64,000 nucleotides of DNA from an uncultured virus (IMG/VR IMGVR_UViG_2941446319_000001). Its lineage: Duplodnaviria > Heunggongvirae > Uroviricota > Caudoviricetes. The DNA is taken from IMG/VR virus record IMGVR_UViG_2941446319_000001; one strand, 5' to 3'. The notes beneath the pieces are model-generated. The model did no database searches and was not told the origin of the DNA. It saw only the letters and a program-made list of their open reading frames with translations. Shown one piece after another: positions 4,150-58,507 of this stretch. Numbering within the stretch: position 1 is the first letter of the stretch; each line of letters opens with the position of its first letter. Position numbers and translations under genes: made by a program.

Positions 4150-4412
4150 TCCGTACGGGCCGAAAGCGACACAAGACGGTGAAGCCCCGGCGGTCGCTCA
4201 AGCTTCCTCGGCTCTGCGCGGAGGCGCCGCGTGAACTGCACGAGGAACAGGACGACACTTCCGGGCCGGTCTTCCGGGCTCAGAGTGGCAACACTTCCGG
4301 GCTGGCCTTCCGGGCTCAGAGCGACAACGCGCACAACCTGCGGCGGGACTCCCGTAAGATCCTCGACCGCGCCGGGCTCGTCGGCAAGGAATGGTCACCG
4401 CGCGGGATGCGA
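4150..4412 (+). pseudogene. Degraded tyrosine integrase fragment
   Basis: Translation ...KTVKPRRSLKLPRLCAEA...AHNLRRDSRKILDRAGLVGKEWSPRGMR resembles the catalytic region of actinobacterial integrases (KT.KSRR.L.LP ... NVRRDFR ... W.PRELRH); no intact start or end; limits approximate. Confidence 0.6.
4255..4326. repeat. Imperfect 36-bp tandem duplication
   Basis: acacttccgggccggtcttccgggctcagagtggca followed by acacttccgggctggccttccgggctcagagcgaca. Confidence 0.9.
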
Positions 4413-4703
4413 CAGCCTGACGCTCGCGTGACCTTACAGCCACAAGATCGCTGAGTAACAAGAGAAATCTCTGACGGCGGGGCGGCATTCCCATTCGACT
4501 GCGGTCGTCCAGGCCGACGGAATCGGGGTAGGGGCCGGGACGCCGGTTGCGGACTGCAATGTAAATAAAAAGCCGTGCATTGCGGCGTTTCGGCGCCAGT
4601 CGATATGTAGCCATGTTCATGGTGAACGGCCGCATCCTCCGCCCGCATGTGGGGGCACAGGATGCAGCCGTTCAACTGGCGGTGTCAGCCGGCGCGGTAC
4701 CGG

Positions 4704-5090
4704 CTAGCAGAGCCACCTTCGCGCTGACTCCACGTTACCGGCCGTTGTCCTGGCCAGTGTGTAGTAGTTTCCGGCGCCGGTCGTGCTGCAGTAGGCGTAC
4801 GAGGTGACCGGGCTGGTACCCCGGGGACAGCAGCCTGCCCTTACGTCGAATCCAGGCACGTCGATCCAGATCTCCACCGTGACCGCTTGGTTGCCGCATC
4901 CGCCGATTCCGGAGATCACGTCTCCGTTCCGGCTCGGAGGATAGGCGTACGGCTGGTACCCGTTGCAATCAGCCGCAGCCGAGGCGGTAGATGCTCCCGG
5001 CGCTGCCGGGGCTGCCGACACCGCCGAGGCCCATGACATGAAGAGCCCTAGTGCCACCGTGAGAATCATGATAATTCGCCGGAAACTCAT
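4704..5090 (-). CDS. Small secreted Cys-containing protein
   Basis: Signal peptide MSFRRIIMILTVALGLFMSWASAVSA; six Cys in the mature part. Confidence 0.65.
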   Translation of the reverse strand: MSFRRIIMILTVALGLFMSWASAVSAAPAAPGASTASAAADCNGYQPYAYPPSRNGDVISGIGGCGNQAVTVEIWIDVPGFDVRAGCCPRGTSPVTSYAYCSTTGAGNYYTLARTTAGNVESARRWLC

Positions 5091-5790
5091 CCTTTTCTCC
5101 CATCTACGAGCCACCGATGATTGAGTGATGCTGGTGGTTTCACGTCGAGGCTGCACATGCCTTCGAATGTCAATTTCGATTGCGCCGGCGGCCCTTCCCG
5201 TACGATTCTGGCGAGCTGCCGGATCGGCGGCTATCCCTTATCCACCGATATATTTCCTAGCCTGCAATGCAGTTGATGTGCTTTCCTGCAAATTAGCATA
5301 GTAAGATCTTGGACAATAGATTTTAGGGAGCCAAAAAGCGCTGCATTCCTGCCAATCGACGCCTCGATGAGGATGCCGCGGCCCATCCGGTCATCATCCC
5401 CGGGCGATCGTGGTCGCCCAGGGGAAGGTTCATCTCACGGAACTCCCGGTCCTCCTGCAGCTTCTTGGGCTTCGATCTCCAACCCGTCCACGGCGGATCG
5501 AGCTGGGAGAAGCGCCGTATCGAGCGGATGCGGAGCTTCCTCGTCGCACTGTGGCCACCGAATGGCACACCGTACGGATGTACGTGTCTTCCGCCTCAAT
5601 CGGGGCCGATCACCACCGAGAAGCCAACGGTTTACGGGGCCGACGTTCCTGCTGCATCAAGCCTCTGACCTCCGGGTACGATGCTCGCCTCCCCCGCCAT
5701 GGAAGATCATCCCGTGTATATCCGGCGAGGCAGGGCCAGCCGTGATCACCCAGGAACCTGCGGATCTAAGATCCGGGAGACTGTGTAGAC

Positions 5791-6105
5791 ATGAGCAAGA
5801 TCGAGCGCCCTCTCGTACGTGAAATGTTTCCCGATCTACTCGCAGATCTCATCGCGTGTCTGAGGGAGGAAGGTGAGGAGGATCTCGCGATCTCCGCCTG
5901 GGACATCCGGTTCTATGAGAAGTGCGGATGCAGTGATGATTTCTGCCAGAGCTTCTATACGGCCGAGCGGCCCGACGGAGCGTACGGTCCGGGGCACAGA
6001 TGTGTGCCGCTGCTTCCAGCGAGAGGCGATCTGATCCTTGACGTCGTTGAGGGACGGATCATGTTCGTGGAGGTCTTGCACTACCCGAAGCTCCCGGCGA
6101 ACTGA
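5791..6105 (+). CDS. Hypothetical protein (acidic, CGCSDDFC motif)
   Basis: Clean ORF with GGAG RBS and protein-like composition. Confidence 0.7.
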   Translation: MSKIERPLVREMFPDLLADLIACLREEGEEDLAISAWDIRFYEKCGCSDDFCQSFYTAERPDGAYGPGHRCVPLLPARGDLILDVVEGRIMFVEVLHYPKLPAN

Positions 6106-6431
6106 AGCCATTGGCTTGGGACCTGCATCGCTTACGACCCGATGAGGCGCTGAACTGGGCAGAGACCCGGTCGGGAGTGACCGTGGTTGACCGCTCGTCA
6201 CCCCCTTGGTGGCCTGCTAATGGCCCGACCGACCAACGCTTGACTCTCCCGTCTCCAGTGTTCCGTGGTACTCGGCAGGGTGGGCCTCGAGATCGACGGC
6301 GCGTTCTACCGCATCAGCAAACCCGGCTTCGAGATGCTGATTCCTCACTGGGAAGGGTGCGCCCCTGAAACAGCTGATGAAGCAGACGCGACCATCACGC
6401 TGTCCGACGGCACTCGCCGGTCGCTACGGTC

Positions 6432-6644
6432 ATGACGCTCGGTGTCGTCAGCAACACCATGGATCGCTGGCGGGACACAGGCGAGTGCCTCAGCGGCCAG
6501 TACTTCTGGTGTTCCGATCTGATCGTCATCCGTGAACCCGGCTTCGACCCGAAGATCACCGCAGTGCAGGAAGTGATCGCATCTGGAGAAATCGACGACG
6601 CATGTGGCGTCCTTCCGCCGCTCGATGAGGACGTGGATCAGTAG
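6432..6644 (+). pseudogene. C-terminal remnant of a hypothetical protein
   Basis: MDRWRDTGECLSGQYFWCSDLIVIREPG is protein-like; upstream sequence (ADATITLSDGTRRS) is in another frame. Confidence 0.45.
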
Positions 6645-7182
6645 GTAAGTGGCTAACCAGGGATCCAGCAGTTGTACAGCAGTTCGTCGTTCTCCCTGGC
6701 CCGACGTGCCGTCGCAATCAAGGGTAGGCGCCCGCTATCCGGTGAGCCGGTGCTGAGGAATGAGGTACCGGATCGTCGATCGCTTTCAGCCACCACCGGA
6801 GGCCAGCTCATACGTGGCGGTCGTAGGGCTGCATTCGTGTGGCGGCGTGACGCTGGGGTTGGCGAGCTCGCTCGGGGTGGCGAGCGCCACGGTCGGCGTG
6901 ACGGTCCGTGCTGCTGCCACGTCATGCTCCGAGGCACCTGCGGTGACGTTCACGCCGGTTGCGAATCGGTGCCCCAGAGCAACGGCAGGGGTGGGATTCT
7001 TCGCTGAAGGCCGGATGACCACGCATCCCAAACGAGCAACCTGCTTACCCTGGGGCGCAAGCATCGGGCGAAGCCCGACACAGGAGGAACGTCCGAGCGC
7101 CAGCGAGGCCCACGCTTACAGGGCGGGCATCAGACGGCCCACCGAAGCCCTGGGTAACGGGTGGGTGGCTCTGGCACTTTCA

Positions 7183-7228
7183 GGTGGGCGGTACTGGTTT
7201 CGAACCAGTGACCCCTCGCTTGTAAGGC
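7183..7228 (-). mobile_element. att site: displaced 3' half of tRNA-Val(TAC)
   Basis: Minus strand reads gcc-TTACAA-gcgag-gggtc-actgg-TTCGAAA-ccagt-accgccc-acc (anticodon loop, 3' anticodon stem, T-arm, acceptor 3' strand); the 5' stem strand, D-arm and 5' acceptor are absent. Confidence 0.88.
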
Positions 7229-7746: not shown

Positions 7747-8730
7747 ATGCGGAGCCAGAACGAGATCGCCCGTACATCCCATGACCTGACCACCACACAA
7801 GAACGCGTCGAAGCCATGGATCAGGCGGCAAAGGACTACCTGCTCAAAACCGCCAACAAGAACACAAGCAAGGCATACCAGGATGACTGGAACACCTGGC
7901 TCCGCTACTGCTCAAAAGTCCGCATACCACCTCAAGAAGTGACCTCCGGAACATATAGCGGCTTCGTCGCATGGATGCTCGGACAAGGCAAAGCGACGAA
8001 AACCATCCAACGCCGCCTCACCGGAGTGCGCGTCGCCATGAAGGACGCAGGAACCCCCATACCGGCCGACGTCATCGAGGCGGCAGCCAAGACTCTCGAC
8101 CGAGCGCTCAAACAGCTCGCCGAAGCCGGCCACCTACGCGAACCAGCCAAGGCGAAAGCGTTCACCGTCGAAGAACTCCGCGCCATGTCCCTCGCCTGTC
8201 CCGACACTCCGGCCGGCATCCGCGACCGTGCCCTGCTCGTCGTCGGCTTCGCCATCGGCGCCCGCCGCCACGAGCTCGCCGGACTGCACGTGCGCAACAT
8301 GGTCGATGCCGCCGAAGGACTGGAGGTGCTGGTGCGAGTCAGCAAGACCGGCTACCGCGACGTTGCCGTCCCCTACGGTCAGCACCTGTCCACCTGCCCC
8401 GTCCGCGCTTGGCAGGCGTGGCTCGGCAGCTCGGGTATCGGCGACGGCCCCGCCTTCCGGCGCATCGACCGGCATGGGCGCATCCTCGGCAGCCTGTCCC
8501 CCGAGGGGGTCGGCGACATCGTCACCCGCGCCGCGGAGCGCGCCAACCTCGGCCACCGCACCGCACACGGCCTGCGTTCCGGCATGGCCACCGAAGCGCG
8601 TCGTGGTCAGCACGACGCGGTCACCATCGCCGCACAGGGCGGATGGACGCCGCACAGCCGCGAGATGCTCGGCTACATGCAGATCGTCGACCGATGGACC
8701 GACAACCCTCTGCGCGGCATCGGCATGTAG
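7747..8730 (+). CDS. Cre-like tyrosine recombinase
   Basis: N-terminal NTSKAYQDDW; RDRALL..GARRHEL (R), SKT (K), HGLRSG (HxxR), GGW (W, Cre-type), catalytic Y in MLGY. Confidence 0.92.
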   Translation: MRSQNEIARTSHDLTTTQERVEAMDQAAKDYLLKTANKNTSKAYQDDWNTWLRYCSKVRIPPQEVTSGTYSGFVAWMLGQGKATKTIQRRLTGVRVAMKDAGTPIPADVIEAAAKTLDRALKQLAEAGHLREPAKAKAFTVEELRAMSLACPDTPAGIRDRALLVVGFAIGARRHELAGLHVRNMVDAAEGLEVLVRVSKTGYRDVAVPYGQHLSTCPVRAWQAWLGSSGIGDGPAFRRIDRHGRILGSLSPEGVGDIVTRAAERANLGHRTAHGLRSGMATEARRGQHDAVTIAAQGGWTPHSREMLGYMQIVDRWTDNPLRGIGM

Positions 8731-8904
8731 ACCTACCCTCCGACTCCCTCAGCGAGGGCAGATTCTGCCCTCTTCGGTAGAGATCATCGCTACCTCTAGG
8801 TAGAGCCCTGTCCCCCGCGCACAAGAACGTTCCAAGAGGTGCACACCCAGCGGGCAGGATGCGCGTCTAACACCCCGTCCGCTTCCTCTCCCCCTGGAGA
8901 TTGC

Positions 8905-9591
8905 ATGCGTCTCATCGCACGCGCTGCCGCCGCTGTCGTCGCTGCGGCGGTCCTGCCCGCTCTCGCATTACCGGCCGGCGCCGCAGCGAAGCCGAAACTG
9001 CCGAAGGGCACGATCACCGCGAGCGTCGTGAAGGTGGTGGACGGGGACACGCTCGACGTCCGCCGCGCCGGCAAGACGCTGCGGGTCCGGCTGCTGGAGG
9101 TCGACACCCCCGAGCGGGGCCAGTGCTGGTTCTCCGCCGCTACCGCCCGCACCAAGGCCCTCCTGCCGGTCGGCAAGGCCGTCTACCTTCTGCGCGACAA
9201 GGACCCGAAGGACCGCTACGGCAGGTGGCTGTACTACGCGTTCAACGCGAAGGGCGTGCACGTCAACCGCAACCTCGTCCGGTACGGGTACGGCAAGGCC
9301 GTCCTCTACGCGCCGAACGACCGCTACATCAGCGTGATGCGCGCCGAGCAGGCCAAAGCGAAGAAGGACAGGCTGCGCATCTGGTCCGGCCGGTGCGACA
9401 AGCCGGGCGGCACCACCCCGACACCCACCCCCACGCCGACGAACACCACCAAGCCGTCCGGCGTCGACCCCCGCTACCGGACGTGCGGCGACGCGAACGC
9501 GGCAGGGTACGGCCCTTACCGCCGCGGGGTTGACGCGGAGTACGCCTGGTATCAGGACCGCGACGGCGACGGAGTCGTCTGCGAGCGCTAA
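8905..9591 (+). CDS. Secreted thermonuclease (SNase family) with C-terminal Excalibur Ca-binding domain
   Basis: Signal peptide; VVDGDTL, RVRLLEVDTPE, DRYGRWL; PT linker; TCGDANAAG...DRDGDGVVCE. Confidence 0.92.
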   Translation: MRLIARAAAAVVAAAVLPALALPAGAAAKPKLPKGTITASVVKVVDGDTLDVRRAGKTLRVRLLEVDTPERGQCWFSAATARTKALLPVGKAVYLLRDKDPKDRYGRWLYYAFNAKGVHVNRNLVRYGYGKAVLYAPNDRYISVMRAEQAKAKKDRLRIWSGRCDKPGGTTPTPTPTPTNTTKPSGVDPRYRTCGDANAAGYGPYRRGVDAEYAWYQDRDGDGVVCER

Positions 9592-10282: not shown

Positions 10283-10577
10283 CTTTGTCCCACCTGTCGA
10301 CGACTTGAGTCTACGCACCGGCCTCGTCCCCGAACAGACCGCCCTGCCGTAGGTTGGCACAACGCATGACGCCCGGACAGCGGTTTGGGATGACGCGTCG
10401 GCAAAACCGGAGCCCTTGGAACGGCAGCGGCCCCCGGAAGATCCAAGCCGGGGGGCCTTTGCGTTGTCGCCATGACGGATAGGCGAGTTTCTTAAAACTC
10501 TTCGAGAAACATCCTGACTGGAGTCATCCCCCGGCGTAGCGTCGGGCACACAGATGCCCCGAAGCTGGGAGGTCCGC

Positions 10578-11426
10578 ATGGCCAGCACAGAAAAGATCAA
10601 CGAAGCACGAAGGGCGCTCGCCGATCGGCTCAAGGAGCTCCGTCTCCACCCCGCCCACGGCAACCCCATGACCGGCGACCAGCTCGCCGACGCCATGGGA
10701 TGGCCTGGCCGCAAAGCCCGCATCAGCAAAATCGAGAACGCGACGCAGCCCCCCACCATCGACGACATCAAAGCGTGGGCAACCGCATGCGGCGCCGACC
10801 ATGAGATCCCCGACCTGATAGCGCAGGTGCGCACCATCGACAGCATGTACACGGAATGGCGGCGCCTGGAGCAGCGAGGGCTCTTCGAGGTCCAGGAGGC
10901 GTTTATCAGCCTCTACGAGCGCACCACCCAGCTCAGGGTGTGGCAGCACTCCGCCGTCCCCGGCCTGCTCCAGACGGAGGCGTACGCCCGCGCCCACCTG
11001 GCGACCATCATCGCGTTCCGCGGCATCCCGGACGACCTGGATCGCGCCGTGGCGGCCCGCATGTCGCAGCAGGACAGCATCGGCGGCGTCCGCCGGTTCG
11101 TGTTCCTGCTCGGCGAGCAGGCACTCCACACGCCGATGCTGGATGCGGGCGGAATGCGTGAGCAGCGGGAGCGGCTGGCCGGCTACACCCACGACCACCC
11201 GAACGTGTCCCTGGGGATCCTGCCCCGAGACGTCCGCCCGCCGGTGATGCCGCCGGAGAACTTCTGGCTGTACGACACCGCCGAGGTCAGGGTGGATGGG
11301 GTAGCGGCGCAGTTCCGGATCAAGAAGCCGGACGACATCGCCGTCTACGAGAAAGCGTTCACCGCCCTGTCCGAGGTGTGCGTGTATGGGGAGGCAGCCA
11401 GGAGGCTAATCGAAGCCAACGACTGA
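10578..11426 (+). CDS. XRE-family regulator with DUF5753-type C-terminal domain
   Basis: LADRLKELR..QLADAMGW..RISKIEN HTH; VPGLLQTEAYAR; LGEQAL; PNVSLGILP. Confidence 0.88.
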   Translation: MASTEKINEARRALADRLKELRLHPAHGNPMTGDQLADAMGWPGRKARISKIENATQPPTIDDIKAWATACGADHEIPDLIAQVRTIDSMYTEWRRLEQRGLFEVQEAFISLYERTTQLRVWQHSAVPGLLQTEAYARAHLATIIAFRGIPDDLDRAVAARMSQQDSIGGVRRFVFLLGEQALHTPMLDAGGMREQRERLAGYTHDHPNVSLGILPRDVRPPVMPPENFWLYDTAEVRVDGVAAQFRIKKPDDIAVYEKAFTALSEVCVYGEAARRLIEAND

Positions 11427-11949: not shown

Positions 11950-12237
11950 CTACTCCTCGGCCGCCTGAAGTTTCTCGGCGGCGCCCGCCAGCACGTAGCT
12001 TCCGGTGCCCCGCTCCGTCTCCACCAGGCCGGCCTCGCGCAAGGCGCGGTGCACCTTCTGGGCGACCGTGTTCGACATGTCCCACCCGGTCATGAGTTCG
12101 TGCACCGTGGGCACCCGGTCGCCAGGGGCCAGCTCACCGGTGCGGATCTGGTCGCAGATCGCCGCGAACGCCTGGCGCCACTTCGACCGACTCGGATGCA
12201 TGCGATCAAGATTCGTGCGCCATACCAGGGTGGACAT
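11950..12237 (-). CDS. GntR-family winged-helix regulator
   Basis: QIRTGELAPGDRVPTVHEL...VAQKVHRALREAGLVETERGTGSYV; start may be at 12201. Confidence 0.9.
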   Translation of the reverse strand: MSTLVWRTNLDRMHPSRSKWRQAFAAICDQIRTGELAPGDRVPTVHELMTGWDMSNTVAQKVHRALREAGLVETERGTGSYVLAGAAEKLQAAEE

Positions 12238-13614: not shown

Positions 13615-13629
13615 TGCAAGTAGCTTGCA
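13615..13629. promoter_or_regulatory. Palindromic operator candidate TGCAAG-N3-CTTGCA
   Basis: Perfect 6-bp inverted repeat 30 bp upstream of the HTH gene that precedes the transfer genes. Confidence 0.5.
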
Positions 13630-13659
13630 AAGCATTGGTGCGACTGCTACACCTAAGAA

Positions 13660-13887
13660 GTGACCGACGAGCGGGAGGTGAGCGACGACATGCTTGCCGC
13701 ACGACTTCGTGAAACAGCCGCCCGCGTACAAGCAGGCGAACAAGCCCGCGACGAACGAGGACGACTCATCGAAGAAGCCGGCCGCCGCAACTGGCCCCGC
13801 GAAGTGATCGCCGACTTGGCCGGCGTCAGCCACCAAGCAGTGACCCAACGCATCCAGAAGAGCCGCCAGCAAGACACAACCGAATAA
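13660..13887 (+). CDS. Small HTH DNA-binding protein
   Basis: WPREVIADLAGVSHQAVTQRI. Confidence 0.75.
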   Translation: MTDEREVSDDMLAARLRETAARVQAGEQARDERGRLIEEAGRRNWPREVIADLAGVSHQAVTQRIQKSRQQDTTE

Positions 13888-13973
13888 GCCGAACGCCCCG
13901 GAGCCAGCGTTGGCGCGCTGACCCCGGGACTTGATCTCGAAACCTCCGTGACTAGAGGACAGGTCCGAGACCC

Positions 13974-15539
13974 ATGGCACAAAGTAATGCCGCTGACCTG
14001 CTCAGCGGTAGTCCTGTTGATCCGTTTCCCGTTTCCTCTCCCGCCGACTGGTGGGCGTGGATATGGACCCATATCTCCATCCCTCTCCCGCCCATCGAGG
14101 TGCTGTGGGGTGTCGGCGCGCTGGCCGTCCTCCTGCTCACCTTCCTGTTCGGCCGCGCCTCTCTGAAAGGTCTGCGCAGCCTCGGGCGCCTCACGAAGGC
14201 GTACCTGTCCAGCCGTTCCATCGAGGACGTGCTGACGATCGTCGCCGCCTCGATCGCGACCGGCGTCTCCGCGACCGGCATGTGGCGCTTCGCCGAAGAC
14301 GTACTCCACCTGCCATTCCTCCTGCGGGTGCTGCTGTTCGCCTTCATCGAGGTCGCGATCGTCACCTCGGCGGTGCGTGCCCGCCGGAACATGCGGGAGA
14401 ACTTCTCCGCCGGCGTGGACGGCATGGCCGTGTGGGCGCTCACCGTCCTCACTGCGGTCCTGTCGAGCATGGACGCCCGCTCGCTGCCGGAGGCGGTGTT
14501 CAGGCTCGCCGCCCCGCTGGTCGCAGCGTGGCTGTGGGAGCGCGGCATGGCCATCGAACGCCACCGCATCCGCGGCACCAAGGGCATCCACTGGCGGTTC
14601 ACGCTGGAACGCGCCATGGTCCGCCTCGGCCTGGCGGAGGCGCGCGACCGTAGCGCCGCCGACGTGGACGCCCACCGCAGGCTCACCCGCGTCGCGCTGG
14701 CCGCCAAGCGGGCCAAGGCGCTGCGCGAAGCCGGCGCCCCCGAGCGCAAGCTGCGCGCCGCCTTCGCCAAACTCGACAAGGCCATGGACCAGGCCGTCGA
14801 GCACACCGGCCTGTCCGACGACGAGACGCGGCAATCGGCTCTGCTGGCGCGGATCGACGCGCTGAACAGCACGGCCACGCTGGCACGCCGGGACAAGGTC
14901 GCCAGGTGGGCCGACCCGACGACCCAGGAAGACCGGGAGCGGGCCGAGACGGCATTGAACGAGGTGCTGCAATTCGACACCGCCGAGGCGACCCAGCGGG
15001 CCATCGACCGGACCGCGGTGACGCTGATGGCGTTGACCGAGCGGGCGACCTCCGAGCAGGTCACCAACAAGGTCACGCCGCTGGTCACCGAGACTGTCAC
15101 CCATGTGGACGTCCCCGCCCCCCGGAACGGCACCACGCTGACCCCTGCCGTGACTGCTCCGGTGACTCCCTCGTTGACCGTCGAACGAGTCAACGAAGAC
15201 GTCACGTTCGACGTCACCGACGAAGCCTGGTTCGACATCGAGCGGGCGCTGACCGCGGACCCCTCGGTGACCCGGATGTTGACCCACCCGATGACCCCTG
15301 ACGAGGTCACCCAAGAGGTCAACGACGCCGCCGATGAGGCTACGAAGACCAAGGTCATGCGCCTCTACTGGGAATCCGAGGTGGCGAAGAAGCGCCACCC
15401 GCGCCCGATCGATCTGGCCCGCCATGCGGGCGCCGATCGCAGCCTCGCCTCCCGCCTCCTCAACGAATGGGTTGAGGAGCTGTCTGGCTGGGACAAGCGC
15501 CGCGCCAAGGCCGCACTACGCGGCAAGGCATCCGCGTAA
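13974..15539 (+). CDS. Multi-pass membrane protein with C-terminal HTH, Spd/DUF2637-like transfer accessory
   Basis: Several TM helices, helical coiled region, T/V-rich linker, C-terminal PIDLARHAGADRSLASRLL HTH; first gene of the operon ending in the FtsK gene. Confidence 0.6.
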   Translation: MAQSNAADLLSGSPVDPFPVSSPADWWAWIWTHISIPLPPIEVLWGVGALAVLLLTFLFGRASLKGLRSLGRLTKAYLSSRSIEDVLTIVAASIATGVSATGMWRFAEDVLHLPFLLRVLLFAFIEVAIVTSAVRARRNMRENFSAGVDGMAVWALTVLTAVLSSMDARSLPEAVFRLAAPLVAAWLWERGMAIERHRIRGTKGIHWRFTLERAMVRLGLAEARDRSAADVDAHRRLTRVALAAKRAKALREAGAPERKLRAAFAKLDKAMDQAVEHTGLSDDETRQSALLARIDALNSTATLARRDKVARWADPTTQEDRERAETALNEVLQFDTAEATQRAIDRTAVTLMALTERATSEQVTNKVTPLVTETVTHVDVPAPRNGTTLTPAVTAPVTPSLTVERVNEDVTFDVTDEAWFDIERALTADPSVTRMLTHPMTPDEVTQEVNDAADEATKTKVMRLYWESEVAKKRHPRPIDLARHAGADRSLASRLLNEWVEELSGWDKRRAKAALRGKASA

Positions 15540-15551
15540 CCATCTCAACGA

Positions 15552-15743
15552 TTGGACAAGAGCATGGCTCTGCTTGTGATCGTCGGCGTCTTGATAGGCG
15601 CTGTTGTCACCATGATGATCTTCAAGATCACGCGCTGGTGGGAGCTCATCATCCTGGTCGGCCTGGGCTCCCTGGCCACCGTCTGTGTCTACAACGGCTA
15701 TGTCGGCGAGTTCTTCGACACGCTCACGGCGTGGGCTCGGTGA
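15552..15743 (+). CDS. Small two-TM membrane protein (Spd-like)
   Basis: Two hydrophobic helices; stop overlaps next start (GTGA). Confidence 0.6.
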   Translation: MDKSMALLVIVGVLIGAVVTMMIFKITRWWELIILVGLGSLATVCVYNGYVGEFFDTLTAWAR

Positions 15744-16417
15744 GTGGCATGAGCTGGCTCATCATCGCCCTAGTCCTCGTGATCGCCATCGGCGCGGTCG
15801 AGAAGTCCGACATCAGGCCCGCCGCCCGCATCCGTGGCAGCCGCGCCTACCAGGGCGGCCGGCGGCGCGCGATCGACCTCGGCAGTGTCCTGCGCGGACG
15901 GCCTCCGCTGTACGTCAATGGCCAGCGCACCGATGTGAAGGACCTGACGGCGCAGGTCGCGGCGATGTCCGACCTGAAGCCTCCCAGGCAGCCCAAGGCG
16001 AAACGCCCCACCATCGCCTACACCCCGCCCACCGCACCTGCGCCGACGCCTGCCGCAGCCAACGGCAGCGCCTCAGCGCCGGGGTCCGCCGGCATCACCG
16101 TGGACTTCTTCCAAGGGGTTCTGATGCTGATCAACGCCCCCTACGAAGGGCCGAACGACGCCCTGCGCCAGCTCCGGAGCCTCGCCGAAGGCGGCAGGCA
16201 GTGGAACGGCGGCCTGATCGGGCTGCACCGGCGGATGTCCGATCCGGCCGACATGCGGATCGACCCGTTCGTAGCGGATCACGTGGTCCGTGCGGCGGCG
16301 CTGGGCCAGGCGATGGTACTGGAGCTGGTGGAGGCGGACACGGCGATGACCGCCCTGCTGAACATGACCCTTGCCGAGATCACCGAGCGGGGCCTCCAGG
16401 TCCCCAACACCAAGTAG
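15740..16417 (+). CDS. Membrane-anchored hypothetical protein in the transfer operon
   Basis: N-terminal TM SWLIIALVLVIAIGAV; coupled to upstream gene; alternative ATG at 15749. Confidence 0.65.
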   Translation: MSGMSWLIIALVLVIAIGAVEKSDIRPAARIRGSRAYQGGRRRAIDLGSVLRGRPPLYVNGQRTDVKDLTAQVAAMSDLKPPRQPKAKRPTIAYTPPTAPAPTPAAANGSASAPGSAGITVDFFQGVLMLINAPYEGPNDALRQLRSLAEGGRQWNGGLIGLHRRMSDPADMRIDPFVADHVVRAAALGQAMVLELVEADTAMTALLNMTLAEITERGLQVPNTK

Positions 16418-16425
16418 GAGTGACG

Positions 16426-18414
16426 TTGAAGCGGGCGCAGCAGCAACCGGCCGGCTACCACGTGGTGTTCCAGCCGCAGGAGCCGCCGAAGCGCCGCGCC
16501 TGGCCTATCCGGGCGGGCCGGTGGATGCGCAGGAACCGGCTGTGGCTGATCCCGCTCGCCATCCCGTTCGGCCTGCTCGTGGCAGCTCACACGGTATACA
16601 AGGCGGGCTGGTGGTGGTGGTTCATCCCTGCGGTACTACTGGTGTCTGCCGCCGTCGTGATGGGCGCCCCGGACCGGTGGGACCGTACCGCGGAGGTGCG
16701 GTTCGCTCGCGCCACCGCCGCGGGGATCGCCGCCTGGCTGATCGCAGGCGCGCTGTGGGGCGTCTGGAACGCTCTCATGACGTACACGCTCGGCGGCCTG
16801 TGGACGATGTGGACCGTCTGCTGGTGGTGGCACAAACGCCCCCGCAAGCAAGACAAGGCCATCGCCGAGTGGGACCTGCAGTGGCAGCTCATCATCCACC
16901 GAATGCGCCCACAACAGCTCACCAACAGCCACGTCATCGAGGTGGACCTGTCGGACGAGAACGTGGACGCATTGCTCATCAAGCTCGACCGGGGGCGGCA
17001 GAACATCGGCAACCTGCGGGACGCTGGCGAGTCAATCCTGTCTGCGTGGGAGTACCCGGAGGAGACCACGTTCCGGGTGGTCAAGCACGGCAGGAACCGG
17101 AACTGGGCCTGGTTCAAAATCCAGCACGCCAACCCGCTGGCCGAACGCCGCGAGTGGGACGAGGACCTCGCCCCGTCCAGCTTCCTGGACGAATTCGTCG
17201 TGGGCTTCACCCCCGAAGGCGCTCTGATCAAGACGACGCTGCCGAAGGCGCACTGGTTCATCGTCGGCCAGACACAGTTCGGCAAGTCCACGTGGCTGTC
17301 CCTGAAACTCGCCCAGCTTGCCGCCTGCGACGACGTCCTCATCTGGGTGATCGACCTCAAGGGCGGCGGCATGGCCGCCCCGTGGAAGCCGTGCATCGAC
17401 TGGCTGGCCACTACCCATGCCGAGGCCGAGCAGATGCTGGCCGCAGCCAAGCGGATCATCAATGCCCGCTCCTCCCTCACTGGCGACCACATCCCCTCCC
17501 CCGAGGACCCGGCGATCGTCATCGTCATGGACGAGTGCAACGAAGCTTTCGGGCAAGGCACAGGCACCGCCGCGCTGGTGGCTGCGGGGGTATCGGTGGC
17601 GCAACTCGGCGCGGGTATGTCGGTCGAGCTCGACGCGGCCACCCAGATCGGTGGCCTGTCGTCGATGGGCGACGAGCGGATCCGCTCCAACCTGTCCAAG
17701 TGCATGGCGTTCCGCTGCCAACAGGACGCGCACGCCGAGTACGCGCTGGAGGACTGGAAGCACCTGAGCGCCTCCAAGCTGGATCAGCCCGGCATGTTCT
17801 ATTTCAAGGACCAGGCAAAACCGTCCGTACTGGGCCGCGGCTTCTGGATCTCTACGCCGCAGCGCGCCCGCCTGGCCCGCATGTACGCCGCCCGCCGCCC
17901 GGTACTGCCGGAGGCGCTCGCTCTGCACGCCGGCGAAGCGTACTCGTCTCGCCACGATCGTGGGGCTGCCGCTCGGCCGCCCTCCCCTGCCCGCGAGGAG
18001 TTTTCTGTGCCTACCCCTGCCGAGATGGCCGCCGCGATCGAGTCCGGCCTTCCCGATCCTGTCACGCACGCTCAGATGGCAAGGCTTGCCGAGGCCCGTG
18101 CCGCCGATGGCCTCCCTCCCCTGTCGGCGGAGCAGGCCTCCCGGACTGGTCAAGATCGTTTTGTGGCTGAGCTGCAGTCCGGACCCCGCTCCCCCACCCA
18201 GCTCATCGAAGCGTCAGGGATGAGCAAGTCGTGGGTGATGGCGATGCTGCCCAAGCTCGTCGAGTACGGCGCAGCTCGCCAAGCAGGACCGCGAGAGCCG
18301 TACGAGGCGGTCCCCGGGATGGACATCCAGGAGGCGCTGGCCGAGATCAGACGCGACCGGCGCAAGCTCGAAGACAAGGCCAAGACCAAGGTCAAGGATC
18401 TGGTGACGTCATGA
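16426..18414 (+). CDS. traB: TraB-like FtsK/SpoIIIE DNA translocase
   Basis: AGGAG RBS plus TTG; four N-terminal TM helices; Walker A GQTQFGKS; IDLKGG; Walker B IVIVMDE; ATQ motif; C-terminal winged helix SPTQLIEASGMSKSWVMAMLPKLVEYG. Confidence 0.82.
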   Translation: MKRAQQQPAGYHVVFQPQEPPKRRAWPIRAGRWMRRNRLWLIPLAIPFGLLVAAHTVYKAGWWWWFIPAVLLVSAAVVMGAPDRWDRTAEVRFARATAAGIAAWLIAGALWGVWNALMTYTLGGLWTMWTVCWWWHKRPRKQDKAIAEWDLQWQLIIHRMRPQQLTNSHVIEVDLSDENVDALLIKLDRGRQNIGNLRDAGESILSAWEYPEETTFRVVKHGRNRNWAWFKIQHANPLAERREWDEDLAPSSFLDEFVVGFTPEGALIKTTLPKAHWFIVGQTQFGKSTWLSLKLAQLAACDDVLIWVIDLKGGGMAAPWKPCIDWLATTHAEAEQMLAAAKRIINARSSLTGDHIPSPEDPAIVIVMDECNEAFGQGTGTAALVAAGVSVAQLGAGMSVELDAATQIGGLSSMGDERIRSNLSKCMAFRCQQDAHAEYALEDWKHLSASKLDQPGMFYFKDQAKPSVLGRGFWISTPQRARLARMYAARRPVLPEALALHAGEAYSSRHDRGAAARPPSPAREEFSVPTPAEMAAAIESGLPDPVTHAQMARLAEARAADGLPPLSAEQASRTGQDRFVAELQSGPRSPTQLIEASGMSKSWVMAMLPKLVEYGAARQAGPREPYEAVPGMDIQEALAEIRRDRRKLEDKAKTKVKDLVTS

Positions 18415-18436
18415 GGTCACTCACAGTCCGTCACCA

Positions 18437-18560
18437 AGGTCCACGAAGATCACTCCTGTGGACTTGTGGGAGCCCATACGTGCGTAGGCGTGGGCGCGCG
18501 GGCGCGAGTGGACCTCCCGTGGACCTCGCGAAGAGGGGTTCGTGGACCATCCGTGGACCT
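18437..18560. promoter_or_regulatory. clt-like cis-acting transfer locus: cluster of 8-bp GTGGACCT repeats
   Basis: GTGGACTT 18458, GTGGACCT 18508 and 18519, GTGGACCA 18542, GTGGACCT 18553, inverted AGGTCCAC 18437; two pairs have 3-bp spacers; directly downstream of the traB-like gene. Confidence 0.75.
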
Positions 18561-18595: not shown

Positions 18596-18865
18596 ATGTC
18601 GATCATGTTCGCGGCGATGATGACCGACCTGCTGGACATGGCCACCGCCACCGCATGGATGGCTGACGGCCTTTGCAGCCAGACCGATCCGGAGGAGTTC
18701 TTCCCCGACACTGGCGAGAGCTCGGACGCCGCCAAGCAGGTGTGCCGCGACTGCCCGGTGCGCGAGCGGTGCCTGGAGTACGCGCTCGCCGAGGGGATCG
18801 AATTCGGCGTCTGGGGTGGCCTGACCGCCAGCGAACGCGCCAAGCGGCTCGACCTAGCCGCTTAA
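18596..18865 (+). CDS. whiB: WhiB-family transcription factor
   Basis: LCSQTDPEEFFP..AKQVCRDCPVRERCLEYAL..GVWGG. Confidence 0.95.
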   Translation: MSIMFAAMMTDLLDMATATAWMADGLCSQTDPEEFFPDTGESSDAAKQVCRDCPVRERCLEYALAEGIEFGVWGGLTASERAKRLDLAA

Positions 18866-21535: not shown

Positions 21536-21685
21536 ACGAGAGTCCCGGCCTCACCGTAACCCGCCTACGGGCCTGAGGCACGGCGGTTTGCAGAACACGC
21601 AAACCACTACCGCGACGTGCAAGAACGTCTAGCAGTGCACGCCGGTCCGGGGCTTGCTGGAACCAACCGGACCACAGGAGAGCAC

Positions 21686-22729
21686 ATGCTACCGACCCCC
21701 ACCGCGCCCGGCTTGAACCTCGCGGCGGCCACAGGCGGCGACTTCGCTCGCCGCGGCGGGCAACTGCGAGTCTCCCTCACTCCCCGCTGTCAACTCGGCT
21801 GCTGGTTCTGCCACAACGAGGGCGAGATTCCGCCACGCATCACCCACCACGACCGCGCCATCCAGCCCCGCCGCCGGGCGTTCAACGCCAGCGATTTCCT
21901 GACCGCGATCAACGCCATGACCTCCGCCGGGATCCGGCGCGTGTTCTTCACCGGCGGCGAGCCGCTGCTGTCCCCGCTGGCACGCCCGATCCTGCAGGGC
22001 CTGCCCGAGCATCAGATGAGCGACTACACCACCACGCTGATCACGAACGGTCTCACCCTCACCAAGGACCTCGACTGGCTGGCCGCCACCGCGCTGGACC
22101 GGATCAAAGTCTCGCTGCACTACTTCTCCGATGCCTCCATCGCCGCGATCGCCGAGGGAAAATCCGGCGACATCGCGAAGATCAAAGCCGGTATCGAGGC
22201 CGCCATCGACGTCATCCCCCTCGTGGAGCTGAACCTTCTCCTGCAGGAGCAGAACGCTCACGAGGTGATGGACATCATCTCCTACGCCCGCGAGCTCGGC
22301 ACCGGACTGCAGATCATCGAACTCGTCGACACCGACCACAACCAGGACCTGGGCGGCGCGAAGGTCCCATCGGCCGATATCAGCTCTCACCTCCGCTCGA
22401 TCTCCACCGCCGAGAAGGTGGTCACCTCCGGCACCGGCCAGGGGCGACGAGTCTTCACCGTCTCCGGCCAGCGCGGCGAGATGACCATCGAGGTCATCGA
22501 CGCCTCACTCGGCCGCCACCACGTCGGCCAGTGCACCACGTGCCCCAAGCGGTCGCAGTGCATCGAAGGCTTCTGGGCGCTTCGCCTGGACTCGGCCGGC
22601 GCCCTCAGCCCATGCCTGCTCCGCCCCGACTTGCGCCTGGACGTCACCCCGTACACGCAAGATCAGGCCGCGCTGCTGGCGGCCGTCTCCGCACACCTGG
22701 ACGCCTTCACCGAAGGGACGCTCTCGTGA
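21686..22729 (+). CDS. Radical SAM protein, MoaA-like
   Basis: AGGAG RBS; RVSLTPRCQLGCWFCHNEG (CX3CX2C); TGGEPLL; ITNG; C-terminal CTTCPKRSQC...LRLDSAGALSPCLLR. Confidence 0.88.
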   Translation: MLPTPTAPGLNLAAATGGDFARRGGQLRVSLTPRCQLGCWFCHNEGEIPPRITHHDRAIQPRRRAFNASDFLTAINAMTSAGIRRVFFTGGEPLLSPLARPILQGLPEHQMSDYTTTLITNGLTLTKDLDWLAATALDRIKVSLHYFSDASIAAIAEGKSGDIAKIKAGIEAAIDVIPLVELNLLLQEQNAHEVMDIISYARELGTGLQIIELVDTDHNQDLGGAKVPSADISSHLRSISTAEKVVTSGTGQGRRVFTVSGQRGEMTIEVIDASLGRHHVGQCTTCPKRSQCIEGFWALRLDSAGALSPCLLRPDLRLDVTPYTQDQAALLAAVSAHLDAFTEGTLS

Positions 22730-23412
22730 CCATCACCGCAACCCGCGGCATCAACAAGCCGCTTCCTGCCGCCTACCAGCCGGCCGCAACGCCCCGCTCG
22801 GGCATCTTTGTGGTCCTGGAGGGGATCAGCGGATCGGGCAAATCCACCCTCGCCGCCCACCTGGCCGCGCGGCTGGACTGCCAGTCCTTCCACACCGTCC
22901 CGGCCCCGGTCTCGGACCTGCAGCCGTACATCAACGCGAACGCCCGTACCCTGCCCCAACTGGCCTTCTACCTGGCAGGGGCGCTGCACGCCGCCGACCT
23001 GGCCCGCAAGGCGCTACAGCACGGGCACGCGGTCGCCGACCGCTACGTCAACTCTGTCATCGCCAACCACGCCGCCGTGCACGGCCTCGACAACGCCACT
23101 GTCATCGAGACCATCGCCCCCTTCGCCGGCTACCTGGCTGAGCCGGACCTGACCGTCTACCTGCACACCGACCTCGCGGAACTGACCGAGCGGATGGGCG
23201 CCAAGACCGACCAGACCGCCGCCGACCGCGACCTGATCGCCGACCGGGCCCTGCTACGACGACTCCAAGAGCGCTACGACCAGGTCGCCGACGACGACCC
23301 GACCGCCTACCACTTGCACACGGACGGCCGCACCCCGGATCAGCTCGCCGACCACCTCGCCAACATGGTCCACGCAGTGGCCAGCGTCCAGACGCCCCTC
23401 GCTCACATCTGA
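22726..23412 (+). CDS. dTMP-kinase-like nucleoside monophosphate kinase
   Basis: GTGA overlap with the radical SAM stop; P-loop LEGISGSGKST; DRY; PDLTVYL. Confidence 0.85.
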   Translation: MTITATRGINKPLPAAYQPAATPRSGIFVVLEGISGSGKSTLAAHLAARLDCQSFHTVPAPVSDLQPYINANARTLPQLAFYLAGALHAADLARKALQHGHAVADRYVNSVIANHAAVHGLDNATVIETIAPFAGYLAEPDLTVYLHTDLAELTERMGAKTDQTAADRDLIADRALLRRLQERYDQVADDDPTAYHLHTDGRTPDQLADHLANMVHAVASVQTPLAHI

Positions 23413-23498
23413 CAAGGCGACACGAACGGCCCGTGCTCCCCGCGCGCCCGCGATAGCGTCGGCCCCACGACGCATCGCCCACCGCGGGGAGCACGGCC

Positions 23499-23942
23499 AT
23501 GACCACCGAACCGTTTCGGCCCCACGTGGGCGTGCACCTGATCCTCATCCAGGATGGCAAGGTACTCCTCCTGCTGCGGGCCAACACCGGTTTCGCGGAC
23601 GGCTCGTGGTCGGTGCCCGGCGGCTGCCTGGATGCCGGCGAAACCTTGCCCGAGGGTGCGGCGCGCGAGGCCCGTGAGGAGCTCGGCATCGTCATCGACC
23701 CAGCCGACCTGGATTTCGCGCTGGTGTGTCACCACGCCGACCCCGACGGCCAGGCACGCATCGGCGTTTTCTTCGTCGCCACCCGGTGGACGGGAGAGCC
23801 GGTCAACGCTGAGCCGGGCAAATGCGACAAGCTCGACTGGTTCAGGCTCGACGACCTGCCCGACGACGTCGTCACCTACATCCGCACCGGCCTCACCGCC
23901 TACCGCGGCGGCCTTGCCTTCAGCCTCGACGGCTGGTCGTAG
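23499..23942 (+). CDS. Nudix hydrolase
   Basis: Nudix box GCLDAGETLPEGAAREAREELG; NAEPGKC. Confidence 0.92.
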   Translation: MTTEPFRPHVGVHLILIQDGKVLLLLRANTGFADGSWSVPGGCLDAGETLPEGAAREAREELGIVIDPADLDFALVCHHADPDGQARIGVFFVATRWTGEPVNAEPGKCDKLDWFRLDDLPDDVVTYIRTGLTAYRGGLAFSLDGWS

Positions 23943-25178: not shown

Positions 25179-26066
25179 ATGCACAGCAGACTCGCGGCCG
25201 TCGTGGCCGCCGTGACGCTGGCGGTGACTGGCGCGGCCATCGCCGGGCCGGCGCACGCCACCCCCGCCCCCAAGCCGAGCGTGAACGTCGCAGACGCGTG
25301 CGCTCCCCTCTCCCTGGTCAACCCCACCCGGTGGGGCGCCCAGTTCAGCTACCGCGTCGTCGGCCACCGCCCGGTCGGCCCTGTCGCCGTCCCTGCCCGT
25401 TCGACGGTTCAGCGTGAGCTGCGTCCCCGCTACGGCTCCGGCGCTCTGGCCGTGCAGTGGTGGGCTCGGTCTCACGACTGGCGGGCCAAGGCCGTAGCGG
25501 TGGTCCGTGCGGAGCGTGTGCTCCGCACGGCGAACGGCGTCGAGGTGGCAGCTCAGGCCAAGTTCGATGCTGCGGACAAGGTTCTCCCCACCAAGACCGA
25601 CAAGTGGGCAGGCTCATGGGCTGCAGAGCTCGCGAGGCTGAAGGTCGTCGCCGCTGACCAGGACCAGACGGAGCATCGCGCCGAGGCGCTAGAGAAGATC
25701 GCCCTGATCGAGCCGTACCTCGACGCCGAGTCGGCTCTCGCTGACGCCAAGGTCAAGGTCGTCGACGCCCGCAGCACGGTCAGCAAGGCCCAGGAGGCGT
25801 CCTACTGGACGCGCTGGAACCGAGGCCTCGTCCGAGTGGCGGAGTGCGTCACCCCGACTCCGACGCCTACCCCGACCGTGACTCCCACCGAGGAGCCGAC
25901 CGCCACTCCGACCCCGGAGCCGACCCCGACCGTCACCGAGACGGAGACCCAGGAGCCGACTCCCGAGCCGACCGTTACCCAGACCAACACCCGCGTGATC
26001 GTCGTCAATGACGTGATCGTCCCCGACAGGGTCGACACCGGTCTCGGCGGCCTCGCCACCAAGTAA
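25179..26066 (+). CDS. Secreted protein, probable class F sortase substrate
   Basis: Signal peptide, helical insert, PT/PE-rich linker, C-terminal VPDRVDTGLGGLA; adjacent to the sortase. Confidence 0.7.
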   Translation: MHSRLAAVVAAVTLAVTGAAIAGPAHATPAPKPSVNVADACAPLSLVNPTRWGAQFSYRVVGHRPVGPVAVPARSTVQRELRPRYGSGALAVQWWARSHDWRAKAVAVVRAERVLRTANGVEVAAQAKFDAADKVLPTKTDKWAGSWAAELARLKVVAADQDQTEHRAEALEKIALIEPYLDAESALADAKVKVVDARSTVSKAQEASYWTRWNRGLVRVAECVTPTPTPTPTVTPTEEPTATPTPEPTPTVTETETQEPTPEPTVTQTNTRVIVVNDVIVPDRVDTGLGGLATK

Positions 26067-26128
26067 TCCCCCCTGGGGCTGGACTGCGCTGGAGCGGTCC
26101 AGCCCCGCTTCCCTTTCTGGAGCCCTCC

Positions 26129-26713
26129 ATGCGTAGCCTCGCCGCCGTAGCCGCCGCCTTGGTCCTCGTGTCCGCCTGCGGCGGGAACGGCCCTTCTGGG
26201 CAAGCTCAGCCGCGCCTCGCTGCGGAAGATCCCCCCTCAAGCATCAGCACTCCCACGCTCACCAAGTCGCCTCGCGCGGCCGAGCCGGAGCGGATCCGCA
26301 TCCCGTCGATCGGCGTAGACGCCCGCATCGTCAAGGTCGGACTCAAGGCCAACGGCGACATGGAGACGCCCGACTTTGGCAAGGCGGGCTGGTACACCGA
26401 AGGCCCCCGCCCGGGGCAGGACGGACCGGCCGTGGTCGTCGCCCATGTGGACAGCAAGACCGGTCCGGACGTTTTCGCCAAGCTCAAGCAGCTGAAGCGC
26501 GGAGAGAAGATCGCCATCACCGACAAGAGCGGCAAGGTACATCAGTTCGTGGCCCGCCGCCAGCAGCAGACTGACAAGACCGCGCTCCCCGTGAAAGCCA
26601 TCTGGGGGAAGACGGACGGCCCGGCGCTGAGGCTCATCACCTGCGGCGGCGACTTCGACCGCAGGATCAACCACTACGTCAGCAATGTGATCGTGTGGGC
26701 CGACGCCGCCTGA
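26129..26713 (+). CDS. Class F sortase
   Basis: Lipobox-like VSAC; RIRIPSIGVDA; AGWY..GPRPG..GPAVVVAHVDS; LRLITCGGDFD...N. Confidence 0.93.
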   Translation: MRSLAAVAAALVLVSACGGNGPSGQAQPRLAAEDPPSSISTPTLTKSPRAAEPERIRIPSIGVDARIVKVGLKANGDMETPDFGKAGWYTEGPRPGQDGPAVVVAHVDSKTGPDVFAKLKQLKRGEKIAITDKSGKVHQFVARRQQQTDKTALPVKAIWGKTDGPALRLITCGGDFDRRINHYVSNVIVWADAA

Positions 26714-27741: not shown

Positions 27742-28104
27742 TCAGGCCGCCAGGTTGTAGGCGCTCTTCGGCTTGCTGGTCTGCCGCAGGAACACCGCCA
27801 CGCCAGCACCCACGAGCGACATGATGACCGCCGTCTTCTCCGGGGTGGCGTCCCAACCGAACGTGATCGCAGCCGAGATCGCAGCCTGAACGAAGCCCAG
27901 AATGGCCGCCTTGATGCTGCCGCCGTTGTCCGTGCTGCGGGTGGTGAACGCCATCCACACGCCCGCAGCGGCCAGCACAGCCGCGTTCACGCCAGCGGTC
28001 ATCTCCTCCGACCACGGCAGGAAGAACGCGGCCACGAACTGCACCACCATGGCCACGAACGTCGCGTACAGGACCGGCTCGCCGGTTAGCTCGTCACTCT
28101 TCAT
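27742..28104 (-). CDS. Holin-like membrane protein
   Basis: Four TM helices, EPV motif, downstream of endolysin. Confidence 0.7.
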   Translation of the reverse strand: MKSDELTGEPVLYATFVAMVVQFVAAFFLPWSEEMTAGVNAAVLAAAGVWMAFTTRSTDNGGSIKAAILGFVQAAISAAITFGWDATPEKTAVIMSLVGAGVAVFLRQTSKPKSAYNLAA

Positions 28105-28209
28105 GCGCCCCTCCAAGGGGTGAGGCCCGCACTCGGCGGGGGGATTTGGGAATGCGAAAGGGCGGCCCACATCTGGTGGACCACCCGAGGAAAAGACAGG
28201 TGTGTGCGG

Positions 28210-53753: not shown

Positions 53754-53754
53754 G

Positions 53755-54991: not shown

Positions 54992-54997
54992 GGCAGG

Positions 54998-58504: not shown

Positions 58505-58507
58505 TGG

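Follow-up and report, generated by a model that had tools for sequence, protein, structure and literature searches.

A tailed prophage in an actinomycete tRNA-Val gene carries a TraB-like translocase next to a clt-like repeat array, a candidate route for moving phage DNA without virions

Could a temperate tailed phage of mycelial actinomycetes carry, in addition to its virion genes, a pump that moves its own DNA from cell to cell? The question is raised by a 64,000-nucleotide stretch of DNA recorded as an uncultured Caudoviricetes virus (IMG/VR IMGVR_UViG_2941446319_000001; this whole stretch is referred to as the window), in which a run of genes at positions 13615–18560, interpreted in an earlier note as a TraB/clt-type conjugation module, encodes membrane proteins and an FtsK-type ATPase and ends in a cluster of short repeats. 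TraB translocases form a hexameric pore and are needed for the transfer of double-stranded DNA (dsDNA) between hyphae. In our best explanation, to which as one joint proposition we give even chances, positions 7182 to 98723 (the right end lies beyond the window) comprise a single temperate siphovirus-type prophage of ~91.5 kb at a tRNA-Val gene, and its TraB-like pump docks on the repeat array and moves phage dsDNA.

The window belongs to a 10.7-Mb, 41-contig actinomycete genome (G000) and consists of high-GC DNA (66–71%). Comparison of the window, extended by 40 kb on either side, with itself yielded a single 47-bp perfect direct repeat bounding 91.5 kb. The left copy of this attachment (att) site (7182–7228, no strand) is identical to the 3′ part of tRNA-Val(TAC), and the right copy, identified by self-BLAST at 98677–98723, 34.7 kb past the window end, lies within the tRNA-Val(TAC) gene predicted by ARAGORN at 98678–98751 on the minus strand. 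Thus, the att-bounded element proposed in the earlier note has the second boundary that was to be sought beyond position 64000. The note had also reasoned that an internal att copy would reveal a separate, tandem actinomycete integrative and conjugative element (AICE); fuzzy searches that tolerated up to 8 mismatches over 47 positions, 5 over 30 or 3 over 24 detected no third copy in the same extended region, and neither ARAGORN nor Rfam detected an intact tRNA inside the window. The att pair indicates that the prophage, apparently intact at 91.5 kb, is integrated in the 3′ end of tRNA-Val(TAC) of a large-genome actinomycete.

Both ends of the element carry a tyrosine recombinase gene. The first (7747–8730, plus strand; Pfam Phage_integrase, E = 5.7e-9; PHROG 1, E = 9e-17) adjoins the left att site and is transcribed away from it, whereas the second, encoding 299 aa, is located beyond the window beside tRNA-Val (97683–98582, equivalent to L002:13683-14582, minus strand; Pfam, E = 4.7e-23). 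In the circular form, these two different recombinases would be divergent from attP. At the same junction, the related contigs C371 and L037, described below, each have one integrase only, unrelated to either of the two in the window element.

Both genomes of the genus that were examined (G021 and G058) lack the prophage and have an intact tRNA-Val gene with an att-like site (1 mismatch) beside the same ROK-family gene; where the prophage would lie, they contain 9–12 kb of unrelated DNA. No synteny of the left flank was detected in the relatives, and the empty site was therefore assessed from the tRNA-Val/ROK side only; combined with the unrelated DNA at the site, this points to the tRNA-Val locus being a variable hot spot. 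In the Logan contigs of the probable source run, host and prophage unitigs are equal in depth, and the unitigs flanking the 47-bp repeat are equally deep (~121–123), with the graph leaving the flank joins ambiguous and thus uninformative on excision. Left of the att site, a ~3.2-kb segment (3990–7180) with a lower GC content (62%) lacks convincing genes or family matches and includes a 36-bp tandem duplication (4255–4326); it may be what is left of an element that previously occupied the tRNA-Val hot spot.

The cassette of interest is part of an arm, between the att site and the lysis genes, that is transcribed opposite to nearly all other phage genes. Scans seeded with an alignment of the ATPase (A1) identified five related loci (L016 and L037 to L040), and comparison with these delineates a conserved core comprising a protein with multiple transmembrane (TM) segments, two small membrane proteins, the FtsK ATPase, an array of GTGGACC repeats and a WhiB protein, all encoded on the plus strand. 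The genes were delimited by frame analysis of third-position GC and from open-reading-frame lists, and the anatomy of this core and its conservation in relatives are directly visible. The first conserved gene (13974–15539) encodes a 521-aa multi-TM protein, possibly DUF2637-like, with at least two TM segments by hydropathy and with homologues that are 64–65% identical in L016 and L037 and 39% identical in L039. It is followed by genes for a 63-aa protein with two TM segments (15552–15743; hydropathy; homologues in L037 and L038) and for a protein of ~228 aa, with an uncertain start, that has no family match and combines a TM segment at its N-terminus with a linker rich in Pro and Ala (15731–16417). 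Then come the gene for the 664-aa TraB-like translocase (16420–18414), the array and the gene for a WhiB-family regulator (18596–18865; Pfam Whib, E = 2.3e-24). In all five loci of the relatives, the homologue of the 228-aa protein is encoded directly upstream of the ATPase and whiB lies directly downstream of the array, making the three genes contiguous. The 521-aa protein has homologues in the three loci that reach far enough and match, and the upstream partial open reading frame (ORF) of L038 showed no match.

The small genes at 12.3–13.9 kb and the cargo past WhiB are not conserved in the relatives. The former include a 75-aa protein (13660–13887, plus strand) with a possible helix-turn-helix (HTH) domain, for which the Pfam HTH matches are sub-threshold only (E = 0.05–0.08) and BLAST found no homologue in L016 or L037. 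Accordingly, the gene run delineated in the earlier note holds for the multi-TM protein, the two small membrane proteins and the ATPase, and less well for its leading small HTH protein; in the multi-TM protein, the TM segments agree with hydropathy, but the C-terminal HTH noticed in the same reading is less well confirmed, having no family match. Upstream of the cassette, on the opposite strand, is the GntR gene that the note had pointed out (11950–12237, minus strand; Pfam GntR, E = 3.4e-12). It encodes a short winged-helix regulator of 95 aa, without an effector domain, that is 87% identical in L016 and has counterparts at the equivalent position in L037 and C371, and it is a candidate Kor/TraR-like repressor. 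A promoter and terminator scan of 11.8–19.2 kb yielded nothing exceeding chance.

The ATPase itself has the architecture of TraB that had been ascribed to it, with sequence motifs, hydropathy and structural models in agreement. It contains a Walker A motif (GQTQFGKST) and a Walker B motif (VIVMDE), strong hydrophobic segments at residues 41–59 and 65–83, an FtsK-type motor and a C-terminal winged helix. The NCBIfam plasmid_TraB profile (NF041214) matches the protein with E = 2.4e-13, aligned over profile positions 61–634 of 639, and the phage family PHROG 31069, ‘FtsK/SpoIIIE-like protein’, matches residues 229–515 (E = 1.3e-21, 77.7 bits), far more weakly than the true member of this family in genome G105 (E = 4.5e-105). 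An AlphaFold model built from 16 homologues (pLDDT 75) has four long N-terminal helices, and Foldseek placed it closest to TcpA, the conjugation coupling protein of pCW3, and FtsK motor domains (E ~1e-13), followed by EccC and HerA. When modelled alone from 6 sequences (pLDDT 85), the C-terminal 100 aa form a winged helix of H-H-H-strand-strand topology and then a long helix. The LAGLIDADG_3 domain (PF14528) of one ATPase homologue (P0014, 1016 aa) suggests that an intein is inserted in the pump.

The clt-like repeat array (18438–18560, plus strand) is located in the 181-bp spacer that separates the ATPase gene from whiB and ends 36 bp ahead of the whiB start. Its repeat unit, CGTGGACC(T), is present at 18438 (inverted), 18508, 18519, 18542 and 18553, and a further, degenerate copy lies at 18458. 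This is the cluster of 8-bp repeats that the first reading had placed directly after the ATPase gene. The GTGGACC word occurs five times in 122 bp (18438–18559; four direct and one inverted copy), where ~0.035 copies are expected from the 3021 copies in the genome (0.28 per kb, both strands), the Poisson probability of at least five being ~4e-10. The 91.5-kb element holds 32 copies, 27 of them outside the array, and thus, at the genome-wide rate, there is no enrichment outside the array of the kind seen for FtsK-orienting polar sequences (KOPS). All six loci, including the window, share a spacer of 181–199 bp and an identical layout, in which one of the copies is inverted, a near-palindrome is conserved and the direct copies form two pairs, 11 bp apart.

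The repeat word itself differs between loci, in step with the predicted recognition helix of the ATPase: the window, L038, L039 and L040 have GTGGAC together with SWVMA or SWVAA, whereas L037 and L016 have GTGCAC together with SWVRH. In the ATPase tree, the window protein pairs with P0002, which is of the L037 type, and P0006, of the L016 type, belongs to the sister trio, so that the word states are interleaved and at least two changes are needed. Such co-variation is the pattern expected if the winged helix reads the word. Related arrangements have been reported for plasmids: TraB of pSVH1 is described as reading 8-bp repeats via its helix alpha-3, and in pWTY27, four 7-bp repeats within 159 bp after traA are reported to be bound by TraA and required for transfer (PMC3583192).

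To place the ATPase among its homologues, we constructed a maximum-likelihood tree of the motor region with 39 rows, leaving out three TraB rows and one EccC segment. The proteins of the window clade form a single group (100/99), sister to those of Streptomyces phage Hiyaa, Thermobifida phage P1312 and two plasmid Tra-like proteins (91/85), and these groups are joined by five curated NF041214 TraB proteins (80/63). Outside these groups, chromosomal FtsK, EccC, small Tra proteins and the AICE-type Tra proteins of the genus branch in an unresolved comb. With moderate to weak support, therefore, the ATPase appears not to group with chromosomal FtsK or EccC.

Is the arm an inherited part of this phage, or a guest? 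The closest homologues of the ATPase, with 61–93% identity in 15 of the 17 matches, come from metagenomes and one Streptomyces genome; searches for close relatives by peptide patterns returned none in genomes or viral contigs with the single protein, and none in viral contigs with the alignment. The most informative relative is a 42.7-kb contig of a Streptomyces metagenome-assembled genome (MAG), C371. It starts with nine ORFs that are 32–53% identical to the early genes at 80–94 kb of the window element and continues with a Cro-like HTH gene, an integrase-like gene, GntR and a TROVE/VWA gene. Next are homologues of the HTH/DUF5753 regulator (80%), GntR (87%), the 521-aa protein (65%), the 228-aa protein (62%) and the ATPase (73%), and WhiB, and these are followed by variable genes, a sortase (76%), an amidase, a holin (66%) and the late gene that comes next (74%). 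C371 is free of host genes and tRNA genes, and TerL was not found in the incomplete MAG G110. The TROVE/VWA gene, which encodes a Ro-like protein (L018:2235-3812), lies between the integrase and the cassette arm. The metagenome contig L037 (22 kb examined of an 83,342-bp record) likewise combines early-gene homologues, an HTH gene, an integrase and two GntR genes with the cassette, its ATPase being 86% identical. Both contigs are colinear with the circularised 91.5-kb element and have no host genes between early genes and cassette, which argues that the arm is an inherited part of the phage lineage rather than a separate AICE. The reading of positions 7182 to 98723 as a single element is thus well supported.

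A pump of this kind recurs in related prophages. Among 110 genomes of the genus, five have relatives of the TerL of the window prophage, and in four of these five (G000, G094, G105 and G057), representing three lineages, an FtsK-like gene is located in the equivalent arm, 25–37 kb from TerL on the lysis side, in line with the co-occurrence of traB-like and terL genes that the note had proposed to look for. In G094, TerL is 88% identical and the FtsK-like protein is of the PHROG 1358 type, whereas that of G105 is of the PHROG 31069 type; in G063, no FtsK-like gene was found within 40 kb of TerL with the PHROG 31069 and 1358 profiles. The organ thus appears to be kept while the gene is swapped between lineages. 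Further afield, tblastn searches with the ATPase matched six phage records at 25–28% identity, namely Hiyaa (twice), Spocter, Galactica, Keanu and P1312, all annotated as FtsK-like, and 27 actinomycete plasmids.

Combining these observations, we propose that the ATPase is anchored in the membrane, that its C-terminal winged helix would dock on the repeats once the phage DNA is excised or while it replicates and that the ATPase would pump phage dsDNA across a membrane or septum, in the manner of TraB with the clt locus of Streptomyces plasmids. The phage genome could then pass, virion-free, between hyphae in a conjugation-like process or between compartments of one mycelium, and GntR would act as the repressor of the cassette, by analogy with plasmid kil-kor systems. 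We infer the term ‘conjugative phage’ from the arrangement of the genes. A farther-reaching version, in which the integrated prophage, with all its tailed-phage equipment, would also be a conjugative element, its pump loading after excision on the GTGGACC array and moving 91.5 kb of dsDNA past the receptors into neighbouring hyphae or compartments, and in which swapped pumps would be a regular organ of the temperate phages of mycelial actinomycetes, seems to us doubtful, though worth stating.

Several points weigh against the proposed mechanism. Transfer and excision are predictions from the sequence. The ATPase scores 49.5 bits against a curated plasmid_TraB cut-off of 800, whereas members of NF041214 from Streptomyces genomes score 816–999 bits, and its match to Pfam FtsK_SpoIIIE (PF01580) is not significant (E = 0.12). 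The similarity of the C-terminal domain to generic winged HTH DNA binders is weak (Foldseek E of 1e-3 to 2e-2), with the FtsK gamma domain absent among the matches listed for this domain, and in the ATPase tree the deep branches are moderately or weakly supported and unstarred, with long branches converging there. The partner proteins are only tentatively DUF2637/Spd-like: the 521-aa protein has an Atlas feature score of 0.95 to a cluster with DUF2637 in 79% of its members and a pairwise match to gp98 of Hiyaa (E = 0.001), which itself attains 19.3 of 22.8 bits for DUF2637, but there was no Pfam match to DUF2637 (PF10935) even at E 5 and no match by hhalign of small profiles. Because helix and array lie within ~400 bp, recombination could move both without a functional link, and the array, situated just upstream of whiB, could be the operator of another regulator. 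Finally, the authors of studies of cultured phages with FtsK-like genes favour other roles, proposing DNA segregation (PMC4569894) or replication (PMC11536984).

The last point leads to an alternative in which the pump serves spread or inheritance within one mycelium only, across vegetative cross-walls or, like FtsK/SpoIIIE/SffA proteins, into prespore compartments, with no intermycelial transfer. The anatomy, with a membrane anchor, a motor, a winged HTH domain and a docking array on the phage's own genome, would be the same. TraB together with Spd proteins drives intramycelial spreading. The roles proposed for the genes of the cultured Streptomyces and Thermobifida phages fit this alternative, and the non-orthologous replacement in four of the five related prophages suggests a routine need of phages in mycelial hosts. 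However, plasmid TraB does both, and intermycelial transfer, spread in one mycelium and spore inheritance are indistinguishable from sequence; we regard restriction to one mycelium as a possible, although not the favoured, explanation. It is less probable, to our minds rather unlikely, that the repeats are operators of the whiB promoter, with GntR, WhiB or the winged helix of the ATPase as the repressor, and that the ATPase excludes superinfecting DNA or has another role in lysogeny. This would account for the array ending so close to the whiB start, for whiB following the array in all six loci and for the position of the arm where temperate phages keep genes expressed in lysogeny, but the concerted change of all repeat copies follows the ATPase helix, the array is positioned as in characterised clt loci, and none of the four cassette proteins matches PADLOC defence families.

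The remaining alternative, that the arm is a separate AICE, either arranged in tandem with an ordinary prophage or nested within it, each integrase coming from its own element, we consider very improbable. AICEs are defined by an integrase, a Tra protein and an initiator of the RepSA, RepAM/DUF3631 or Prim-Pol type, span 9–24 kb and typically also include GntR and Nudix genes (PMC3218068), so that the GntR gene, the Tra-like ATPase and a Nudix gene of the arm, its opposite strand and the presence of one tyrosine recombinase at each end all call such an element to mind. The same genome even holds a small, classic AICE-like element (G000:C1:103000-112300; L041), with genes for XRE, GntR with UTRA, small ORFs, a 588-aa Tra protein with a winged HTH domain (27% identical to the ATPase) and an integrase, followed by host genes, which illustrates what a separate element would look like. 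By contrast, the window element, with Int and Tra-like genes, measures 91.5 kb and has phage replication genes. The earlier note had seen no AICE replication initiator; none was matched among the 29 ORFs at 7.3–28.2 kb, which extends that observation for the families with profiles, RepSA having no Pfam model and thus lying outside the reach of the scan. Moreover, both long contigs of the relatives place phage early genes beside the arm with a single integrase between them, one of them including lysis genes as well, and the Nudix gene belongs to a viperin-type cluster. The lack of a third att copy, the absence of a Rep match among the 29 ORFs and the colinear relatives largely refute the separate-AICE interpretation.

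If the proposed pump does move phage DNA between cells, the temperate phages of mycelial actinomycetes would have a second, particle-free route of spread, one that ignores receptor-level resistance and blurs the boundary between phages, plasmids and AICEs. The proposal also bears on the function of the many genes annotated as ‘FtsK-like’ in actinophages. Given that the repeat word tracks the recognition helix, specificity should switch when helix and word are swapped between relatives.

The remainder of the element is that of a tailed phage. The lysis cassette, with two holins and an amidase (27742–29267, minus strand), is convergent with the cassette arm and is followed on the same strand by the tail, head and packaging genes (29454–52821), among which are Dit, the tail tube, the tape measure (35565–39617), the capsid (45332–46471), the portal (49679–51346) and TerL (51361–52821); the head, tail and lysis genes claimed from the sequence are present, in what looks like a complete set. 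Early and middle genes, including an antirepressor, occupy 52784–64000 on the minus strand and run on past the window to the second integrase at 98582, the early genes at 64–98.6 kb including SSB, a Toprim/AAA_25 primase-helicase, an AAA_24 protein and a second WhiB. In the arm, the HTH/DUF5753 regulator found in the Streptomyces MAG relative is encoded at 10554–11426 (plus strand).

Variable cargo at 21617–23942 (plus strand) comprises a radical-SAM protein (viperin/MoaA-like), a nucleotide kinase and a Nudix protein, without homologues in L016 or L037. The first matches the MoaA and prokaryotic viperin models, the kinase matches PADLOC VakA and PDC-M51B, and the Nudix protein matches PDC-S07, making this a candidate prophage-borne defence cluster of the viperin-plus-kinase type. 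A Pif-like conjugal immunity role for the Nudix protein was rejected because the gene belongs to that cluster. Also inside the arm (25179–26713), a class F sortase, 76% identical in the Streptomyces relative, is preceded directly by the gene for a possibly secreted 295-aa protein without a family; this region may be a lysogenic-conversion surface module.

Some further features of the element were recorded. Beside the first integrase, the gene at 8839–9591 encodes a staphylococcal-nuclease-fold protein with an Excalibur domain (PADLOC ‘SNc+LTD’, E = 3e-21), and a host gene situated ~3 kb left of the window shares 89% identity with the final 64 bases of this gene. Inside the prophage, ARAGORN predicted a tRNA-like gene whose anticodon has four bases (cttg; L001:557-631, window coordinates 64557–64631, minus strand) and a 92-nt tRNA-Ala(ggc) (L002:2869-2960); these may be phage tRNAs, one perhaps of the frameshift-suppressor type, or an artefact. 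At 55300–58000, ~2.5 kb of imperfect repeats with a 66–72-bp period fall into two families (8 and 5 copies) with a G-rich skew, and the coding strand is ambiguous here, with an 883-aa minus-strand ORF opposing several plus-strand ORFs.

How does this prophage compare with known systems? One close parallel is with the TraB, Tra and TraA proteins of Streptomyces conjugative plasmids and AICEs (pSVH1, pIJ101, pJV1 and pWTY27), which are likewise membrane-anchored FtsK-type ATPases of ~650–700 aa with a C-terminal winged helix, encoded directly upstream of short direct repeats and near genes for GntR and small membrane proteins. Unlike those proteins, the prophage ATPase is only ~25–30% identical to them at best and far under the curated TraB cut-off, and its host replicon is not a plasmid or a 9–24-kb AICE but a 91.5-kb tailed prophage with phage-type replication genes, for which binding to the array and transfer are predicted.

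Among cultured actinophages, FtsK-like translocases (those of Hiyaa, Spocter, Galactica, Keanu and P1312, and PHROG 31069 and 1358) represent the sister group of the window clade (91/85). Upstream of its FtsK-like gene, Hiyaa encodes a membrane protein whose match to DUF2637 is sub-threshold, as in the prophage, and P1312 has the gene for a large protein (562 aa) just upstream and an integrase gene nearby; the actinophage proteins differ from the prophage ATPase in being only 25–28% identical to it, over a third to under half of its length. FtsK-like genes have been reported in many actinobacteriophages (bioRxiv 10.1101/2024.02.16.580700). A full-text search for phage-borne TraB/clt in Streptomyces found no such literature, and a search for FtsK, Streptomyces phage and conjugation found no such case by title or abstract.

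An 86-kb circular, phage-plasmid-like replicon of Saccharopolyspora pogona (NZ_CP031143.1) resembles the prophage in its TerL (41% identical) and in its layout, with GntR divergent from genes for a DUF2637 protein and a 657-aa P-loop protein. It differs in being extrachromosomal and in having ParA, its ATPase is 27% identical over 155 aa (E = 0.002), and the two membrane proteins show no significant alignment.

A further precedent is pZL12/phiZL12, a Streptomyces plasmid-phage reportedly described by Zhong et al. in 2010. According to papers that cite it (PMC3583192, PMC4487206 and PMC5431353), it is a ~90-kb replicon that combines tailed-phage structural genes with a tra locus, and its tra gene is reported to be required for conjugal transfer (PMC3583192). 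Its relative pSLE1, for which pZL12 serves as the well-characterised comparison, is described as having two integrase genes (PMC4487206), as does the prophage, and pZL12 has been cited as a model also for the tRNA-Val-integrating PhiNon1 of Nonomuraea (PMC5431353). By description, pZL12 is an autonomous plasmid with ParAB, whereas the prophage is integrated at tRNA-Val and a scan of 133 ORFs (81 in the window and 52 to its right) yielded no match to ParA or ParB families. With the FtsK-like genes of actinophages and pZL12 as precedents, the idea of a phage with a conjugation-like pump is less new than the earlier note implied; what appears to be new here is an integrated tailed prophage, rather than a plasmid-phage, that carries its own deep lineage of such a pump.

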